A DNA stretch of 59,955 bases from Candidatus Hydrogenedentota bacterium (GCA_034408725.1 JAWXCN010000012.1:1-59955); one strand, 5' to 3'; shown: positions 10,337 to 25,983, counted from the first letter of the stretch. Program-made: numbers and translations. The notes: generated by a model from the letters alone, not told the origin.

Positions 10337-10607
10337 TGCTCGTATTGTGAATCGTGCTCGTGGTCTTAATCGTAATCGTCCTCGTAATCGATTCTTCGAT
10401 TCCCGTTGCTGGGGTGTTCAAATTCCAGGTGCGACTGACCGTATCTTTGGTGCGTCGCGCCGTGGGCGCTTCAGATGGCGGAGGAGGCTTTTTGGTGTGT
10501 TGCGTCGATTTGGAATCACAGCGGGGATCGAGAAGATCGATTACGATTACGAGCACGAGCACGAGCACGAAATAGTTCCATACCCGATACCCGGTACCCG
10601 ATACCCG
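10337..10607. repeat. Composite REP-like element, copy 1 (palindrome, CGATTA/CGAGCA hexamers, ATACCCG heptamers, plus an inverted left arm)
   Basis: 10337-10405 is an imperfect reverse complement of 10521-10570; 10428-10607 is homologous to 14060-14253. Confidence 0.8.
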
Positions 10608-14059: not shown

Positions 14060-14253
<194 letters not shown>

Positions 14254-15360: not shown

Positions 15361-15429
15361 TCTCCCCCGGCGGTGCTTGAGTGAAGCTCAATCCTGCGCG
15401 TCGCGCGGTATCAAGTTCAAGCATTGGGT

Positions 15430-15459
15430 TTGACGCTACGCGGCGAGGAGCGTTACACT
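15430..15459 (+). promoter_or_regulatory. Putative sigma70 promoter for gpmI
   Basis: TTGACG-18 nt-TACACT about 40 nt upstream of the ATG at 15501. Confidence 0.45.
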
Positions 15460-15500
15460 TTGCGGATCTCCGTTTTAATGGATCATGGAAGGATTGCGTC

Positions 15501-17126
15501 ATGCCGGACCTGAAACTGAAATCGCTACCCAATTACAAACCGTTTCCGGGACCGGTAGTTTTTATCGTTATGGACGGCGTTGGGATCGGCAAGCGCGACG
15601 AATCGGACGGAGTCTGGCTTGCTTACACGCCGGTGCTGGACGCCCTAATGAATGAGCCGTTGTACGCGCAACTCAAGGCGCACGGCGCCGCGGTAGGCAT
15701 GCCATCGGATGAGGACATGGGCAATTCGGAGGTGGGCCACAATGCGCTGGGTGCGGGCCGTGTGTTTGCGCAGGGCGCAAAACTCGTGAGCGAGGCGATA
15801 GCATCCGGACGGATTTTTGAAGGCGCGGCATGGAAGTCAGCGATTGCGAAAGCCAGGGCCGGCGGCACGCTCCACCTCATCGGTTTGCTGTCGGACGGCA
15901 ATGTTCATAGCCATATCAATCACGTGCTGGCATTGTTGGATCGTAGCGCGGCCGCGGGCGTCGAGCGCGTGCGCTTGCACGTGTTGACCGATGGGCGAGA
16001 CGTACGCGAACGCAGCGCGTTGGGGTACATCGCCAAAGTGGAAGAAAAACTGGCCGCACTGAACAGCAATGGCTGCGACTACTGCATGGCGTCCGGGGGC
16101 GGCCGCATGATAACGACGATGGACCGGTACAACGCGGACTGGTCGATTGTCGAGCGCGGGTGGAACGCGCATGTGCTGGGAGACGCGCGGATGTTTTCGA
16201 GCGCGGCGGGCGCGGTGCAGACGTATTACGACGAAGACCCGACGGTGACGGACCAGTATGTTGGCAGTTTTGTAGTCGCGAAGGACGGCCAGCCGGTCGG
16301 CACGATCGAAGACGGCGACGCCGTTATATTCTTCAACTTCCGTGGCGATCGAGGCATCGAAATTACAAAAGCGTTTGAAGAAGGCGCGGAGTTCGACAAG
16401 TTTGATCGCAAGCGCGCGCCGAAAGTATTTTACGCGGGCATGATGCAGTACGACGGTGACGCGCTGGTGCCGAAGCATTATCTGGTCGAGCCGCCGGCGA
16501 TCGAGCGTACCGTCGCCGAGTACATGTGCGCGCAGGGCATCACGGCATATGCGATCTCGGAAACCCAGAAGTTTGGGCACATCACCTATTTCTGGAACGG
16601 GAACAACACCGGCTATATCGATGAAAATCTGGAAACATACGTCGAGATTCCTTCCGACCGCGTGCAATGCGATCAGCGGCCCTGGATGAAATCGGCGGAG
16701 ATCACCGACGCGGTGATCTCCGCTGTTGAAAGCGGCAAACATAAGTTTATTCGCATCAACTATCCGAATGGCGATATGGTGGGCCACACCGGCGTGCCGA
16801 TTTCCATTCGCGTGTCGGTTGAAGCGGTCGATATCGCGCTACGGCGGTTGTTGCCCGTAATCGCGAAGGCGAAGGGCATAGCGGTCATCACCGCCGACCA
16901 CGGTAACGCAGATTGTATGTTCACGGAGAAAAACGGCAAGCGCGAGCCCATGGTCGCGCATACGCTGAACCCCGTGCCGTTCATCATCAAGGACTACACC
17001 GGCGCAAACGCGATCACGATAAAGAAGGTGGATGGCGCAGGCTTGAGCAATGTCGCGGCGACGCTGATGAATCTGCTGGGGTACGAGAAGCCGGCGGAAT
17101 ATGACGAGAGTTTGATCGAGATTTAA
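15501..17126 (+). CDS. gpmI: 2,3-bisphosphoglycerate-independent phosphoglycerate mutase
   Basis: MGNSEVGH, LSDGNVHSH, DGRD, NFRGDR, ETQKFGHITYFWNG, DMVGHTG, TADHGNAD. Confidence 0.97.
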   Translation: MPDLKLKSLPNYKPFPGPVVFIVMDGVGIGKRDESDGVWLAYTPVLDALMNEPLYAQLKAHGAAVGMPSDEDMGNSEVGHNALGAGRVFAQGAKLVSEAIASGRIFEGAAWKSAIAKARAGGTLHLIGLLSDGNVHSHINHVLALLDRSAAAGVERVRLHVLTDGRDVRERSALGYIAKVEEKLAALNSNGCDYCMASGGGRMITTMDRYNADWSIVERGWNAHVLGDARMFSSAAGAVQTYYDEDPTVTDQYVGSFVVAKDGQPVGTIEDGDAVIFFNFRGDRGIEITKAFEEGAEFDKFDRKRAPKVFYAGMMQYDGDALVPKHYLVEPPAIERTVAEYMCAQGITAYAISETQKFGHITYFWNGNNTGYIDENLETYVEIPSDRVQCDQRPWMKSAEITDAVISAVESGKHKFIRINYPNGDMVGHTGVPISIRVSVEAVDIALRRLLPVIAKAKGIAVITADHGNADCMFTEKNGKREPMVAHTLNPVPFIIKDYTGANAITIKKVDGAGLSNVAATLMNLLGYEKPAEYDESLIEI

Positions 17127-17139
17127 CGAGTTACAGCCG

Positions 17140-17589
17140 TTACTCCGCAGGCTCTGCGGTTTTCCTCAATTTCCTCACTGAGTATGGCGCAAAAGTATAA
17201 AACTCAACGATCAACTTTATTTTCAGTCGTGCCAGAAATTGAAATGCTTCCACATCGAACCCAAAGCCTGTTCCAACCTCGGACTCTTGGTAGATCGCAC
17301 AGCGCATTTGTCTTTCGACTTCTTCCGGAAGAGAGTCAATTCTTTCCAATTTAGGTTCAAGAATACTCCTGAGCAGCGAAATGTGCTCTTCTTCATCCGC
17401 GTCGTTCGGCAAACCGGAACCCAAGTTCCAAACGTGAGATTTAATACCTGGCCTCGATCCCTTTAACGTCACGCTCGTTGGCTGAATATCTAGTCGTTGA
17501 GTTAGTTTTTCGGGGTGTATTTCTGCGCTATACAATACGAAGCTGATGAAGACATAACGCGGTGGAAATAGTGCCGGTTCGCAATCCAT
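17140..17589 (-). CDS. DUF4279-like protein
   Basis: EIHPEKLTQRLDIQPT...KG...WNL..S...EEHI..L...L pattern resembles DUF4279; AT-rich; RBS ggagag. Confidence 0.6.
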   Translation of the reverse strand: MDCEPALFPPRYVFISFVLYSAEIHPEKLTQRLDIQPTSVTLKGSRPGIKSHVWNLGSGLPNDADEEEHISLLRSILEPKLERIDSLPEEVERQMRCAIYQESEVGTGFGFDVEAFQFLARLKIKLIVEFYTFAPYSVRKLRKTAEPAE

Positions 17590-17613
17590 GAGTCTCTCCA
17601 GGCCATTTCAAAG

Positions 17614-17643
17614 CTACACCGAGTAATGTTTGGCGACTTTCAG
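17614..17643 (-). pseudogene. Remnant of the extreme 3' end of a divergent degT allele
   Basis: Translates LKVAKHYSV*, versus RKVAAHYSV* at the end of the intact gene (19062-19091). Confidence 0.75.
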
Positions 17644-17665
17644 ACTTTGACATTTGATTTTTTCG

Positions 17666-18223
17666 CTATTGATCCATAAGTGTTAGCGTAATCATATCTT
17701 CTGCTGTGGTCCGTTTCGCTGTGCCGAAAATTAGTCGTTCGTCATTTACCGGCTCTAAATCGTGTAGAGAAGCTCTGAGGCGCACAATGTTGAGGCGGCG
17801 GTTGTGAATTCGGATACGGTAAATTGAGGACTCATGACCCGTTGTGAGAATGAAATGAATGTCCTTGCGGATGGGAGGCCCAACGGGAACAAAACCGATC
17901 ATTCCGCCCGTTTGTAACGATGTACTTCCTGAAAAGTCAAAACGGAATACACCGTCAGATGTGGTATTTCCTCGCAGAAGAGTAGAGCCCGGTTTTCCGT
18001 CGCCTAATGTTCCATTGAGCGCATCGGCCAATGCCACGTCCTCGTTTGCCAGGCTCGTGCGGGCGAGCAAAACTGCCCTGCCGGCAACCGGCTGCCCGAC
18101 ACTATTTGACAATTTGCCTTCAACGCGCAATGGGGGGTAAATAACTAGTCTATCGCCGGCGAAACACCCGCAGGCGGAAATAGCGAGAATAGTAGTCGCA
18201 GAACCGCTCAAAAGTTTACGCAA
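17666..18223 (-). CDS. Hypothetical lipoprotein
   Basis: TTG start with RBS gagga; signal and lipobox ILAISAC/ACGC; AT-rich. Confidence 0.6.
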   Translation of the reverse strand: MRKLLSGSATTILAISACGCFAGDRLVIYPPLRVEGKLSNSVGQPVAGRAVLLARTSLANEDVALADALNGTLGDGKPGSTLLRGNTTSDGVFRFDFSGSTSLQTGGMIGFVPVGPPIRKDIHFILTTGHESSIYRIRIHNRRLNIVRLRASLHDLEPVNDERLIFGTAKRTTAEDMITLTLMDQ

Positions 18224-18234
18224 TCCTCATCTCC

Positions 18235-18283
18235 AACTGCATTGGCGACCTCGTCGACATACTGTTCCGGGCATGAATTCGTG
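18235..18283 (-). pseudogene. Remnant of the near-3' segment of a divergent degT allele
   Basis: With one extra base it translates HEFMPEQYVDEVANAV, versus HESMPEQYIEEAAYAV in the intact gene. Confidence 0.8.
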
Positions 18284-18285
18284 GC

Positions 18286-18352
18286 CAGGTTTGAGCAAGT
18301 GGCCGCAACACTGATGCATCTGCTGGGGTACGAGAAGCTGATCACGATTTAG
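18286..18352 (+). pseudogene. Remnant of the 3' end of a divergent gpmI allele
   Basis: 47/54 nt match to 17038-17091 (GLS-VAATLMHLLGYEK), then LITI* versus LIEI*. Confidence 0.85.
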
Positions 18353-18594
18353 CGGCCATAGAATTCTTCGTCCGAAACTCCATCCGCCGGAGTGAGCCGA
18401 AAACGGCGGCGGGCCCCGACGACATATTTGTGGTCAATGTACCTTCCCTGTTGAAGCGGGACCGGATAGACCTCCTTTTTCCCTGCAATGAATTTGATGC
18501 ACTTGAAATGGCTGGATTTATTTGCTTCGCGAACTTCGACGTCAAACGATTCCAAAATTCGCTTGAAATCGTGTCTTGAAATTGGGCTGGGCAC
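18349..18594 (-). CDS. HicA-like toxin
   Basis: About 81 aa, basic; PISRHDFKRILESFDVEVREANKSSHFK..YPVP; directly downstream of a HicB-like gene. Confidence 0.6.
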   Translation of the reverse strand: MPSPISRHDFKRILESFDVEVREANKSSHFKCIKFIAGKKEVYPVPLQQGRYIDHKYVVGARRRFRLTPADGVSDEEFYGR

Positions 18595-18595
18595 G

Positions 18596-18967
18596 CTAAG
18601 CCGGGAGCAATTCCATGCCGCGTATTCCACGCGACACACGGGATAGTTCGGCGGGAGTGATTCGTGCAGGCATCGACGGTGAACCAACCGCTATCTCCGA
18701 GTCGATCAAAACTTCGTTGTATTCTATGTCATTGTTCAACCACTCTTCCGCCTCCGCGGGGAAAAAGAAACGCATCTCGCCGGGCGCCGCAAGGAATTCT
18801 TCGACATAGAGTTTGAATACTTCTTCCAACTGATCCTTGGCTTCTTCGCGGCTGGCACCGATGCCCAACAAATCAAACTCCAGGGCCCGCGCGTAGAATT
18901 TACCGTCTTCTTGTTTGTATGAAACGCGCACCAGTCCTTCCAGGCGCACTTTATTAGTGAGTGACAT
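18596..18967 (-). CDS. HicB-like antitoxin
   Basis: YKQEDGKFYARALEFDLLGIGASREEAKDQLEEVFKLYVEE matches the HicB N-terminal partial RNase H pattern. Confidence 0.7.
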   Translation of the reverse strand: MSLTNKVRLEGLVRVSYKQEDGKFYARALEFDLLGIGASREEAKDQLEEVFKLYVEEFLAAPGEMRFFFPAEAEEWLNNDIEYNEVLIDSEIAVGSPSMPARITPAELSRVSRGIRGMELLPA

Positions 18968-19061
18968 TGGTGCTTTCCTTTATATAATGGCGTCAACGCG
19001 GACGGCCTCGTTAAGTATACAACAACGGCTAATTCGGCGAGCGGGGCGTATTTTGTGCGTA

Positions 19062-20384
19062 TCAAACGCTGTAATGTGCCGCCACCTTCCGCACCGCATA
19101 TGCGGCTTCTTCGATGTATTGTTCCGGCATGGATTCGTGGATCACAATGCGGACGCCGGTGGTGAGGATTTTCTCGGCCTCGGGCGTCTCGTGTTTCGAG
19201 AAATCCATGTCGGTGAGGCCCATTTCCTTCACAGGCCATTTCCCTGCGAAGAACCCGTGGTTCAGAAACACGGGATTGTGGTGCATGGTGACGGGGATGT
19301 ACCCCGCGGATGCCTGCACACCTTCCGCGACGAGGGCTTTCACGAACTGCGCGCGGTCGCAGGAGAACGCTGCCAGGTCCATGCGAAACATGTAGAACCA
19401 GAACGAGCAGCGGTCTTCCGCGTGCACGTTGTGCGCGGTGATGCCTTTCACGCCGGCAATACGCTCGCTGAGCAGATTGCCGAGTTTTGATCGCGTCGCG
19501 ACGATATCTTCCAGCCGGGTGATCTGGCCCGCGGCGACTGCTGCCTGCGTTTCGCTCATGCGGTAGTTGGTCGAGAAAAACGAAAACTGCCCGCCGTTGA
19601 TGCGGTCGAAGCCTTTGTCTCCAAACCATTGCAGGCGCGGACCGAGCGCATCGTCATTGGAGGCTACAACGCCGCCGTCACCTGTGGTGATGTGTTTGGA
19701 ATTTTGCAGGGACCAGCAAGCGATGTGGCCGATGGTGCCGATGGGTTTGCCGCGATACTTCGCGCCCCAGGCCTGCGCGCAGTCTTCGATGAGGATAAGG
19801 TTGTGCTTATCGGCAACGGCTTTGAGCGCATCAAGGTCGCATGGATTGCCCGCGAGGTGTACCGCGATGATCGCCTTGGTTTTCGGGGTGATGCGCCGTT
19901 CGACATCAGCGGGATCGAGGTTGTAGGTCGTTGGATCCAAATCGGCGAAGACGGGCACGCCCATCTGGTATATCACGCCGATCACCGTGCCGATGTCCGT
20001 GATCGGCGCGGTGATCACTTCGTCGCCAGGCCAGATACCCGCGGCGGCAACAGCGATGTGCAATGCGGCGGTGCCAGAGGAACACGTCATAACGTGTTTC
20101 AACGGGCAAATCTGCTGGAACCGCTCTGTGAAAATGCCCGTCTGCGGACCTTTCCAATAAAACAGCGTGTCCTGCCCAAGCATTTCGTTGAGGCGTTCGC
20201 GTTCGGGTTCGCCGAATCGGGGTGGCTGCTTGAACGCGGTTTTCACCGCTTTTTCGCCGCCGTCAACGGCTAGCGCGGCAGGGGTCGCGGGTTCGGCTGC
20301 GTGCGCGATTCTGGTGGCAAGCGACAAGCCCGCGGCGGATGCAGCCAGAAATTCGCGTCGAGGGAGATTGTGTGAATTTTTCAT
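19062..20384 (-). CDS. DegT/DnrJ/EryC1/StrS PLP aminotransferase with Tat signal
   Basis: SSGTAALH, GDEVIT, IEDCAQA, WSLQNSKHITTGDGG, NYRM; N-terminal PRREFL. Confidence 0.92.
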   Translation of the reverse strand: MKNSHNLPRREFLAASAAGLSLATRIAHAAEPATPAALAVDGGEKAVKTAFKQPPRFGEPERERLNEMLGQDTLFYWKGPQTGIFTERFQQICPLKHVMTCSSGTAALHIAVAAAGIWPGDEVITAPITDIGTVIGVIYQMGVPVFADLDPTTYNLDPADVERRITPKTKAIIAVHLAGNPCDLDALKAVADKHNLILIEDCAQAWGAKYRGKPIGTIGHIACWSLQNSKHITTGDGGVVASNDDALGPRLQWFGDKGFDRINGGQFSFFSTNYRMSETQAAVAAGQITRLEDIVATRSKLGNLLSERIAGVKGITAHNVHAEDRCSFWFYMFRMDLAAFSCDRAQFVKALVAEGVQASAGYIPVTMHHNPVFLNHGFFAGKWPVKEMGLTDMDFSKHETPEAEKILTTGVRIVIHESMPEQYIEEAAYAVRKVAAHYSV

Positions 20385-20664
20385 GGGTTGAGGATACTAG
20401 AGGTGTGCGGGTTGGTCAATTCGTAGCGCCGGGTTTGCCGAAGTGGCCCCGACTTCGCCAAGGGCGGCGCTACTTTGGCGTTACTTCGGTCATGTCGACG
20501 CTATTCGCGCTACTTTGCGATGGCGGTGCTACTTTGTCAACGCTACTTCGGGGCTCTTAATGCACATAAGCCTTTGGAAATACGGCGGATTCGTGTGGTA
20601 AACTTGCGGTTCTGTGACTTTACTAATCCGGGCGCGCGGTGCTGCGTGTCCGCCGGGGAAGACT

Positions 20665-20967: not shown

Positions 20968-20970
20968 AGA

Positions 20971-21165
20971 ACATCCCCCTAAATCCCCCTTCAAAGGGGG
21001 GACTTTTAAGAGGCCATTCGACGTATGGATATCGATAAAAGTTGTTTCGTCTCAGCGGCATGTATCGTTTCACATGTATCGTTTCAGCGACATGTTTCTT
21101 CTCAACGGCACGTTTCTCAACGACGTTGAATAGCCGCATTAAAGTCCCCCTTTGAAGGGGGATGT
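20971..21165. repeat. REP doublet (REPIN/MITE-like) with CCCCCTAAATCCCCCTTCAAAGGGGG arms
   Basis: Left arm 20971-21005, inverted right arm 21141-21165; same arms as 25850-25983. Confidence 0.85.
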
Positions 21166-21253
21166 TACGCCCAAGATTGCGATTGAGGTATAAACTGACA
21201 AGATCGAGTACTAATACGATGGCGAGCACGAGCACGAACGAGACAGGAAACGC

Positions 21254-22759: not shown

Positions 22760-23119
22760 GTGCGGTTTATGGACATCTGGACATGGAGCCCGTTTTGGTC
22801 GGAAGAAGCGCGGAAAGCGATCGTACATTTTACTGAACCAGAAAGACGGCGATTTCTATTTGTTCAGTTTGTTATCGGCATCTGCGTGTCACTGTTCGGG
22901 ATGTTGCTCGCGAATACGCTGTTTGGAGAAACGGTAACTATTGCTTCCGCTAGCGTGGCAGGTCTTGCTACTGTTGGCTTTGTCTTTTTTTCCTACTTCT
23001 CCCGGCGAACCGTGAGACGCATTTTGTCAAACACTGAGTGGGCGCTACAGCAGGGATATAACGCAGAGAATTTGAGATTGACTCGATTTGGTCGCCGCAA
23101 ATTGGATACTCACGAGTAA
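22760..23119 (+). CDS. Small hypothetical two-TM membrane protein between gatA and gatB
   Basis: 119-aa ORF fills the gap, has two hydrophobic stretches and is more AT-rich than its flanks. Confidence 0.6.
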   Translation: MRFMDIWTWSPFWSEEARKAIVHFTEPERRRFLFVQFVIGICVSLFGMLLANTLFGETVTIASASVAGLATVGFVFFSYFSRRTVRRILSNTEWALQQGYNAENLRLTRFGRRKLDTHE

Positions 23120-23130
23120 AGAAAGTCGAA

Positions 23131-24566
23131 ATGAAATACGAACCAGTCATAGGCATGGAAGTGCACGTCGAATTGAGCACCAAATCAAAGGTGTTTTGCG
23201 GATGCAGCACAAATTTTCATGCGCCGACTAACACGAACGTGTGCCCTGTGTGTTTGGGCATGCCGGGCGTATTGCCGGTGTTGAACAAGCGCGCGGTGGA
23301 AATGTCGGTCGCGGTCGGGCTGGCGTTGAACTGCAAATTTCGCGCTGGTCGAAGATGGACCGGAAAAACTATTTTTATCCCGACCTCGCCAAGAACTACC
23401 AAATCAGCCAGTACGATCTGCCGCTGTGCCACGACGGGTTCATCAACATTAACACCAACGGCGCGGCGAAGCGCATCGGGATCACGCGCGCGCATCTGGA
23501 AGAAGACACCGCGCGCAACACCCACACCATTGGCGGCGGCGACAGCGGCGTGGACTTTAACCGTTGCGGCGTGACCTTGCTGGAGATTGTGACCGAACCG
23601 GACATTCGCAGCGCCGACGAAGCCTTCGCGTATCTGACAGAATTGAAGCAAATGTTGCGCTACCTCGACGTGAGCGATTGCAACATGGAAGAAGGTTCGT
23701 TGCGCGCGGAAGCGAACATCAGCATTCGGCCCGCGGGTACCGAACCGTTCGGCACCAAGTCGGAAGTAAAAAACGTCGCATCGTTCAGCGGTATCCAGAA
23801 GGCCATCGAATTCGAGATTGCGCGGCAGGCAAAACTGCTCGATGAAGGCGGCAAGGTCGTGCAGGAAACGCGCGGGTGGGACGCGGACCGCGGCATCACG
23901 TTTTCGCAGCGCGCGAAAGAATCCGCGCACGACTACCGGTACTTCCCAGACCCCGATCTCGTGCCGATTGTCATTGACGAGGCCTGGGAAACCCGCATTC
24001 GCGAATCCTTGCCGGAGCTGCCGCAGGCGCGTCGCGCTCGTTTTGAAACAGACTTCGGATTGTCAGCTTATGATGCGGGCGTGCTGACTGGCGAGAAGCC
24101 GACGGCGGACTATTACGAGGCGGTTGTAAAACTTGGTTGCCAGCCCAAACAGGCCGCAAACTGGATTACTGTCGAGCTGCAGGCCCTTTTGACCGAACGC
24201 AAGCAAGAGATTGCTGCGTGCAACGTTACACCGGAACACCTCGGCGGAATGCTGAAACTCATCGAGGATGGTACAATTAGTGGGAAGATTGCCAAGGACC
24301 TGCTGGTTGACATGTTCGAGACAGGCAAGGACGGGAAGGCGTTGGTCGCGGAAAAAGGGCTGGTGCAGATCAGCGACACATCCGCGATCGAAGCGGTCGC
24401 GCGGGAAATCCTGACGGTGAATCCGGGGCCCGTGGCCGACTATCGAGGCGGCAAGGAAAAGGCGTTTGGCTTTCTGGTCGGGCAACTGATGAAAGCCACC
24501 AAGGGCAAAGCGAACCCGCAGATGGCGAACGAAGTGTTGAAACGCGTACTGGGCGAAACCGAATAG
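23131..24566 (+). CDS. gatB: Asp/Glu-tRNA amidotransferase subunit B, with a 1-nt frameshift near 23335-23340
   Basis: [21 protein letters not shown] in one frame; [30 protein letters not shown] in another. Confidence 0.95.
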
Positions 24567-25840: not shown

Positions 25841-25849
25841 TTGGGGGCA

Positions 25850-25983
25850 ACATCCCCCTAAATCCCCCTTCAAAGGGGGACTTGAGAGGGCTAACGACAT
25901 ACACTGTTAATTGACCACGCTTTTAAGAAGACTTGAGGTGGCCTTATTGAAGTCCCCCTTTGAAGGGGGATTTAGGGGGATGT
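25850..25983. repeat. REP doublet with perfect 34-bp inverted arms
   Basis: acatccccctaaatcccccttcaaagggggactt (25850-25883) and its exact reverse complement (25950-25983), between convergent genes. Confidence 0.9.

Follow-up and report, generated by a model that had tools for sequence, protein, structure and literature searches.

The gap between two convergent housekeeping genes, gpmI and degT, on a chromosomal contig of a Candidatus Hydrogenedentota bacterium carries what appears to be the scar of a gene acquisition in which no integrase took part. The window, that is, the whole stretch of 59,955 nt analysed here (GCA_034408725.1 JAWXCN010000012.1:1-59955, in which all coordinates are given), has an ordinary chromosomal context of housekeeping genes (gatCAB, dapAB, ppk and others). 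Within it, gpmI (+) and degT (-) are both intact and stand 1,935 nt apart, and the slot between them holds, together with several small cargo genes, diverged copies of the 3' ends of both flanking genes, lying back to back. In our view, to which we attach a probability of roughly 0.55, two allelic versions of the gpmI/degT gap, each with its own cargo, were fused in tandem on the chromosome by one-sided homologous recombination, namely, homology-facilitated illegitimate recombination (HFIR).

Displaced gene ends between gpmI and degT

Reading onward from gpmI, the slot consists of a DUF4279 gene (-), a degT tail, a lipoprotein-like open reading frame (ORF; -), a degT segment, a gpmI remnant (+), a HicA-like gene (-), a HicB-like gene (-) and, finally, degT itself (Table 1). 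The final ~95 nt of gpmI (17033-17126) are the resident counterpart of the gpmI remnant: positions 18286-18338 align with 17038-17091 at 47 of 54 columns, with one gap, and in a self-blastn of the window the same similarity is recovered as the fourth strongest repeat (18282-18338 versus 17033-17091, 86.4% over 59 columns, E = 1.5e-10). In local nucleotide alignment the remnant scores 34, whereas 300 dinucleotide-preserving shuffles reach at most 14; at the protein level it scores 60, and 200 shuffles reach at most 46. The final five codons of the remnant are the final five codons of gpmI, and its own stop, TAG at 18350-18352, overlaps the stop of the HicA-like ORF on the other strand (18349-18351, -). 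The end of the remnant is closer to the ends of several gpmI homologues than the end of the resident gene is. Compared with gpmI, the remnant has a 1-nt deletion and is missing seven codons (21 nt). The gpmI tail pattern could be placed in 101 of the 120 listed homologues, the other 19 being left out, and none of the 101 has a tail as short as that of the remnant; all 101 hold the seven codons, which argues for decay after displacement rather than for a natural allele. The two gpmI ends also share a perfect block of 21 nt (17071-17091 = 18318-18338), with diverged sequence on either side.

The degT remnant comes in two pieces. Piece 1 (18235-18284, -) aligns with 19092-19140 at 38 of 49 columns, with a single 1-nt indel; its nucleotide score of 19 exceeds the null maximum of 15, and its protein score of 47 equals the null maximum of 47, so that on protein alone the piece is borderline. 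Piece 2, at the stop, exceeds all shuffle controls, as do the other two remnant matches at the nucleotide level, and repeats seven of the nine terminal residues of degT, with a runner-up of 3/9 among the 137 stops of the slot and a best value otherwise of 5/9 among the 2714 stop-anchored 9-mers of the whole window, the degT end itself excluded. The repeats of degT, the resident counterpart of which is the final ~80 nt of the gene (19062-19140), are 60-74% identical, with a longest exact block of 8 nt (18277-18284). In degT coordinates the two pieces adjoin (19071-19089 for the tail and 19093-19140 for the segment), and when joined they yield an uninterrupted, family-typical C-terminus, with a motif that is kept in 120 of 120 listed degT homologues. 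Because the pieces abut, the sequence between them (17644-18234) can be taken as an insertion between codons -10 and -9, and the two pieces are one remnant cut by an insertion of 591 nt. Apart from a possible 3-nt repeat, no target sequence was detectably lost or duplicated, and the inserted unit is compact, comprising a Shine-Dalgarno-like GGAG 7 nt before a TTG start, the lipoprotein-like ORF, and 22 nt after its stop. The protein belongs to no family in Pfam, NCBIfam, PADLOC or PHROG. Nor does the unit look like an integron cassette: there is no integrase, the inverted repeats of the interval do not lie within the 22 nt that follow the lipoprotein stop, and these 22 nt leave no room for an attC-like site of the usual length.

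The differences between the remnants and the resident genes bear on where the remnants came from. Of the 39 remnant codons that align in frame, 13 are the same as in the resident gene; synonymous differences affect 18 (in two cases stop for stop) and non-synonymous ones 8, and the nucleotide differences at codon positions 1, 2 and 3 number 7, 6 and 18. The synonymous share of the differing codons is 6/8 in the gpmI remnant and 6/8 in degT piece 2 (stop/stop counted in both), and 6/10 in degT piece 1. That the differences are mostly synonymous implies divergence under purifying selection and hence orthologous alleles from other lineages; the remnants derive from once-functional foreign alleles of gpmI and degT. 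Duplication in situ is ruled out by the predominance of synonymous differences along with the unrelated cargos. The G+C content of the slot (0.50) is lower than that of gpmI (0.58) and degT (0.59), the values for the single units being 0.458 for DUF4279, 0.499 for the lipoprotein unit, 0.50 for the HicA-like gene and 0.52 for the HicB-like gene.

The truncated 5' ends of the two remnants meet at 18284/18285, where only TGG (18282-18284) is common to both parental contexts. Each half of the slot resembles a native compact locus: on the one side, the stop of gpmI is 13 nt from the convergent DUF4279 gene and, on the other side, the stop of the gpmI remnant overlaps that of the HicA-like gene. 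One contig preserves the same flanks in two versions, which differ in cargo, and it bears the marks of one fusion and one insertion. No integrase, transposase or relaxase family was detected by Pfam in the 51 ORFs scanned across the 60-kb window; no tRNA or tmRNA was found; and Rfam gave no match in 16800-19400 at E <= 1.

A scan of gene ends, in which 35 residues from each terminus of 50 ORFs (100 ends) were compared with the window, gave 12 non-self matches at E <= 0.02. The gpmI remnant was the best by far (E = 1.9e-4), the degT segment (E = 0.012) lay among the noise-level matches (0.005-0.017), and no further remnants emerged from these 100 ends. Three candidates were dropped as chance: a match of the lipoprotein N-terminus to degT (20004-20078; E = 0.005), one of 12 at noise level; degT-like matches at 17575-17608, with a score of 28, below the null median of 30; and RKVARIAST followed by a stop, a 5/9 match in a tiny ORF near 20490. 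Short intergenic repeats resembling repetitive extragenic palindromes (REP) or miniature inverted-repeat transposable elements (MITE), 22-56 nt long and 79-100% identical in both orientations, occur between housekeeping genes elsewhere in the window (~10352-10607, 14120-14250, 20970-21016, 21123-21250 and 25849-25983); by self-blastn of the window, this family is absent from the gpmI-degT slot.

Much of this had been anticipated in an earlier, sequence-only reading of the window. Its gene order between gpmI and degT matches the ORF map, and its account of two versions of the gap in tandem agrees with the position of the remnant junction; the gpmI piece that it had matched to the end of gpmI, with a stop of its own, surpasses all shuffles, and the degT pieces reproduce the degT C-terminus, as it had stated. 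The codon pattern upholds the derivation of the remnants from foreign alleles, and the ORF scan the lack of an integrase or transposase. Two points need revision: the degT pieces, which it lists separately, are not two layers, their abutting coordinates making them one split remnant, and its claim that there is no att-like repeat was too strong, given the perfect 21-nt block in the gpmI ends. The hypervariability and cassette stacking that it put forward would go beyond the one fusion and one insertion seen in this contig.

Proposed one-sided recombination and its rivals

Recombination that is anchored in homology and requires no integrase, the mechanism favoured in the sequence-only reading, is also the most economical one by our analysis. 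One lineage would have carried gpmI followed, in the opposite orientation, by DUF4279 and degT, the 3' end of degT being cut by the lipoprotein unit then or later, and another lineage would have carried gpmI followed, likewise in the opposite orientation, by the HicA-like gene, the HicB-like gene and degT. DNA of one lineage would have entered the other. At one of its ends, a homologous crossover would have taken place within a conserved gene or past it, and its other end would have been joined illegitimately at TGG (2-3 nt), in the 3' end of the recipient's own copy of the opposite gene. Since the donor DNA would have been added, not swapped, both full-length genes stayed intact and both cargos were kept, with the terminal ~26 codons of a degT allele and ~30 of a gpmI allele displaced to lie back to back at the junction. 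Mirror-image versions of this scenario, with the donor on the right or on the left, fit the sequence alike. In a separate event, the displaced degT allele would have received the 591-nt lipoprotein unit exactly between its codons -10 and -9. What we infer from the scar is the recombination on one side, the direction in which DNA was transferred, and the succession of these events.

Several observations weigh against this scenario. The microhomology at the junction, 2-3 nt, is at the low end and near chance expectation, the microhomology at HFIR junctions being ~3-10 nt. The perfect 21-nt block in the gpmI ends would equally suit a short-homology or a site-specific crossover. A scan of genome contigs with gpmI as the query gave 80 loci among the matches listed (58-76% identity); none of these is a parental or sister locus, the homologous anchor and the direction of transfer thus being unobserved, and in 0 of the 80 does degT, DUF4279, the lipoprotein gene, or the HicA-like or HicB-like gene occur within 10 kb of gpmI. 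Along gpmI and degT, identity profiles in sliding windows, computed against the six closest homologues per gene, reveal no breakpoint. Finally, gatB (23062-24566) is split over two frames, with ~90 N-terminal residues in the ORF at 23062-23574 and the rest in that at 23232-24566, the frame switching by one base at ~23335-23340, at an AAATTT homopolymer run; an error of one base in sequencing or assembly is the probable cause, a true pseudogene being the alternative. Since such a one-base frameshift affects an essential gene, the 1-nt indels in the remnants may be sequencing errors, too, and not decay.

In a Campbell-type insertion, which would not require a mobility gene either, a donor fragment of ~1.25 kb containing the gpmI 3' end, DUF4279, and the degT 3' end (the lipoprotein unit being optional) would have been circularised at TGG and inserted by a single RecA crossover in the gpmI 3' homology, for example, in the 21-nt block. 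Such a unit is exactly what lies between the direct repeats at 17033-17091 and 18282-18338, copies of the gpmI end that contain the perfect block, and no sequence feature separates this scheme from the one-sided model. However, it calls for an extra circularisation step, and the homology on which it would depend, at most ~95 nt at 86% identity with just 21 nt perfect, is a poor substrate for RecA, so that we consider it unlikely. Direct repeats of gene 3' ends around cargo of low G+C are, on the other hand, the classic mark of islands that target gene ends, and the gpmI repeats have an identical core of 21 nt. Integrase-less elements resembling cis-mobilisable elements (CIMEs) could have accreted in a site-specific manner at the gpmI or degT 3' end by means of a recombinase that is encoded elsewhere in the genome or has been lost, in which case the gene ends would be attR-type repeats. 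Against this stand the lack of an integrase, relaxase or transposase in the 60 kb, the 51 ORFs including no recombinase of the tyrosine or serine type within the element or beside it, and the degT repeats, which at 60-74% identity have no exact block longer than 8 nt. Moreover, the putative element holds a remnant of the opposite flanking gene, which points to a homologous locus rather than a free element as its source, and accretion of this kind seems quite unlikely.

The contig comes from a metagenome and has errors, and an assembler might conceivably have stitched the cargo versions of two co-existing strains in tandem. Apart from the frameshifted gatB, the first 90 nt of the window form a near-perfect palindrome (95.6% self-complementary), which is probably a contig-end artefact. 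At the junction, however, only the three nucleotides TGG are in common, so there is no shared k-mer for an assembler to bridge. Both remnants are cut short, at 12-40% of positions they diverge from the resident genes, 21 nt present in 101 of 101 assessed homologues are missing from that of gpmI, and that of degT is itself interrupted, all of which speaks against a chimera. Furthermore, the lipoprotein and the HicA-like protein are each recorded, letter for letter, on a further contig as well (longest length, 12,795 nt), which suggests an independent assembly spanning the junction. A chimeric assembly is, then, very unlikely.

A broader reading of the locus, beyond the single fusion by one-sided recombination, would have the gpmI/degT gap as a recurrent, integrase-free acquisition site of this Hydrogenedentota lineage, at which incoming versions are added and displaced ends accumulate, the 591-nt unit being a minimal single-gene cassette of an undescribed kind with a precise mode of insertion. 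If true, the displaced gene ends in the gap would constitute a readable history of transfer. We regard this broader reading as doubtful.

Cargo, flanking genes and relatives

Table 1. Features of the gpmI-degT slot and its flanks, with positions in the 59,955-nt window; the last four rows give intervals in the corresponding loci of Hydrogenedentota relatives.
Feature	Position	Strand	Evidence
gpmI, 2,3-bisphosphoglycerate-independent phosphoglycerate mutase, 541 aa, intact	15501..17126	+	TIGR01307 1.6e-123; Pfam iPGM_N 4.5e-65
Cargo 1, DUF4279 protein, 149 aa, G+C 0.458	17140..17589	-	Pfam PF14106 3.9e-14
degT remnant, piece 2, last 9 codons and stop of a foreign allele	17614..17643	-	7/9 residues, stop-anchored
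Insertion, 591 nt, splitting the degT remnant, G+C 0.499	17644..18234	-	borders from abutting degT coordinates
Lipoprotein-like ORF, 185 aa, TTG start, lipobox-like signal	17666..18223	-	
degT remnant, piece 1, codons ~-26 to -10 of the same foreign allele, 1-nt insertion in C run	18235..18284	-	38/49 columns; score 19 vs null 15
Junction of the two slot versions, meeting of the truncated 5' ends of the degT and gpmI remnants	18282..18286	.	comparison with resident degT and gpmI
gpmI remnant, last ~30 codons of a foreign allele, to its own stop	18285..18352	+	score 34 vs null 14; self-blastn E 1.5e-10
Cargo 3a, candidate HicA-like toxin, 81 aa, GTG start 1 nt past the upstream stop	18349..18594	-	
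Cargo 3b, HicB-like antitoxin candidate, 123 aa	18596..18967	-	Atlas structure TM 0.60-0.62; complex model
degT, DegT/DnrJ/EryC1-family aminotransferase, 440 aa, intact	19062..20384	-	Pfam PF01041 1.3e-85
Interval downstream of gpmI, relative, locus L001	7437-12769		
Interval downstream of gpmI, relative, locus L002	11621-15865		
Interval downstream of gpmI, relative, locus L015	11630-15545		
Interval downstream of gpmI, relative, locus L032	11624-15409		

The cargo genes are small and unrelated to each other, except for the HicA-like and HicB-like genes, which lie 1 nt apart and might form a functional pair. The DUF4279 protein belongs to its family (PF14106) with 53.4 bits, the cut-off being 25. 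Inside the 3' coding end of its gene there is a terminator-like hairpin for gpmI (17145-17159, +), with a GC-rich stem of 6 bp followed by a T run; the scan for promoters and terminators performed at chance level (2 found versus 2.2 expected; 3 versus 3.6).

The HicA-like protein has no direct match in Pfam, NCBIfam, PDB sequences, PADLOC or PHROG, and neither version of its ORF was found in the Atlas. In a representative library, it has 86 relatives of ~80 aa at E <= 0.001, 72 of which were aligned with the query (14 were omitted, namely, its own 68-aa record and 13 that are much shorter or longer). Among the 73 aligned members, 30 match PF07927 (HicA_toxin), the lowest E being 6.8e-07; the window protein is not one of them. 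The AlphaFold2 (AF2) model built from this alignment has a predicted local distance difference test (pLDDT) value of 94.1, and its best TM matches in a Foldseek search of the PDB, at weak E-values (0.12-0.22), were 1whz, a HicA-family structure (template modelling [TM] scores TMq 0.63 and TMt 0.71, probability 0.99), and E. coli HicA, 6hpb_A (TMq 0.48, TMt 0.63, probability 0.89). A histidine, H29, is conserved in at least 90% of the alignment, and the model thus predicts a HicA fold with the conserved histidine.

For the HicB-like protein, there is no family match in Pfam or NCBIfam and no sequence match in PDB, a word-based homologue search found only the protein itself, and the sole PHROG match is phrog_5166, of unknown function. 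The single-sequence AF2 model (pLDDT 48.6) is too poor for a structure search, and it is the Atlas's own model that shows a TM of 0.60-0.62 to clusters auto-named HicB family antitoxin. A model of the complex of the two proteins scores 0.82, compared with 0.00 for the best of three controls; this mark is reached by 116 of 157 solved complexes and by 2 of 215 mismatched pairs, counts that are only rough, our own alignment having been used. Between runs, at least 98% of contacts agree, and the pLDDT of the partner is at least 68. HicAB complexes have already been solved, and the high mark of the model may reflect likeness to known structures. The complex model suggests that binding may occur between the two proteins, which we consider a candidate divergent toxin-antitoxin pair of the HicBA type. 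The hicA and hicB labels of the sequence-only reading are accordingly partly sustained: they find no direct match in Pfam, NCBIfam or PDB sequences and hold only through relatives, fold and the complex model.

The closest relatives of both flanking genes are proteins of Candidatus Hydrogenedentota. The start of gpmI is the M at 15501, according to homologue alignments and the database record, not the GTG at 15381, where the longest ORF opens 40 codons upstream; 15381-15500 is probably untranslated, and one pattern in the search for related loci came from this segment. The closest relatives of degT in the database are Hydrogenedentota proteins with 89-90% identity. Its N-terminus (20295-20384, -) has a twin-arginine-like signal, RREFL followed by a hydrophobic stretch, which is unusual for a pyridoxal phosphate (PLP)-dependent sugar aminotransferase and probably common to the homologues, most of the listed ones covering 98-100% of the query. 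Upstream of degT, the divergent degT-gatC intergenic region (20460-20560) contains ~5 direct copies of a 9-nt GCTACTTYG-like motif, which may be an array of regulator-binding sites.

Relatives closer than the 80 listed gpmI loci are known as proteins (82-86% identity for gpmI and 83-90% for degT). In four Hydrogenedentota loci (Table 1), the DNA downstream of gpmI differs in each. Found there are a Vsr/C5-methylase fusion with PIG-L and an unknown ORF; an M20 peptidase; and convergent pilin-like N_methyl genes, the last in two of the loci. The 3' neighbourhood of gpmI may be generally unstable in Hydrogenedentota.

Comparison with known systems

The evidence for gene gain without mobile elements is mostly statistical, in the form of hotspots and raised recombination in their flanks, or comes from laboratory transformation, and we know of nothing that has been established about gene transfer in Hydrogenedentota, an uncultured phylum. 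Two displaced gene ends lying back to back, with a junction defined to the base, provide a rare direct record of such an event in nature. They also offer a signature for which genomes can be scanned, namely, short copies, differing mainly at synonymous sites, of the 3' ends of two core genes in convergent orientation, located in the gap between them, whereby one-sided recombination events could be counted.

The process closest to the one proposed here has been demonstrated experimentally in Acinetobacter, Streptococcus pneumoniae and Pseudomonas stutzeri, according to work cited in parts of PMC5361080 and PMC2884548, and in E. coli conjugation, as described in part of PMC3240628. The same passages invoke HFIR for displaced 3' ends and orphan immunity genes at type VI secretion system (T6SS), Rhs and contact-dependent inhibition (CDI) loci (PMC5361080) and for small variable segments (PMC2884548). 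The gpmI-degT slot is similar in that foreign DNA would have been added beside a homologous anchor, with its other end at a very short putative microhomology, no integrase is involved, and resident sequence is partly displaced; the foreign character of the DNA and the lack of a site-specific recombinase are seen in the G+C (0.50 versus 0.58-0.59), the codon pattern, and the 51 ORFs scanned. It differs from HFIR in the laboratory in that the event is deduced from a single natural scar, with the crossover at the anchor unseen, and in that the incoming DNA would be the same locus of another lineage, such that both flanks leave remnants.

In the C-terminal displacement arrays, orphan immunity genes and 3' fragments accumulate downstream of T6SS effector, Rhs and CDI genes (PMC5361080, in passages referring to Jackson 2009 and Poole 2011). 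There, too, homology on one side adds modules and pushes older 3' ends and cargo downstream, with no integrase. However, such an array extends from a single large toxin gene, to one side of it, and consists of toxin tips with their immunity genes, whereas here the flanks are a convergent pair of housekeeping genes, and just one fusion is seen, with unrelated small genes as cargo. In Neisseria, minimal mobile elements are cassettes that lie between a pair of conserved genes and move through homologous recombination (PMC3082526, where it refers to Saunders & Snyder 2002 and Snyder 2007). The gpmI-degT gap would be comparable in having had different whole-gene cassettes between one such pair, without mobility genes. 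The Neisseria elements are defined by variation between strains and are swapped by double crossover, leaving no remnants, in contrast to the gpmI-degT slot, where cargo is added, not replaced, and truncated gene ends remain.

Many hotspots of horizontal gene transfer (HGT) are without mobile elements and show raised recombination in the flanking core genes, as reported in part of PMC5635113. The slot shares with these hotspots the small accessory genes between core genes, the lack of a recognisable mobile element and recombination in the flanks as the proposed driver, but the hotspots are recognised by turnover across many genomes, whereas here a single genome has an internal record of two versions. 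The locus is, then, a new example of an already known process and changes no concept; what distinguishes it from the known systems is that it keeps the remnants of both housekeeping genes, that it records addition instead of a swap, and that it belongs to an uncultured phylum.

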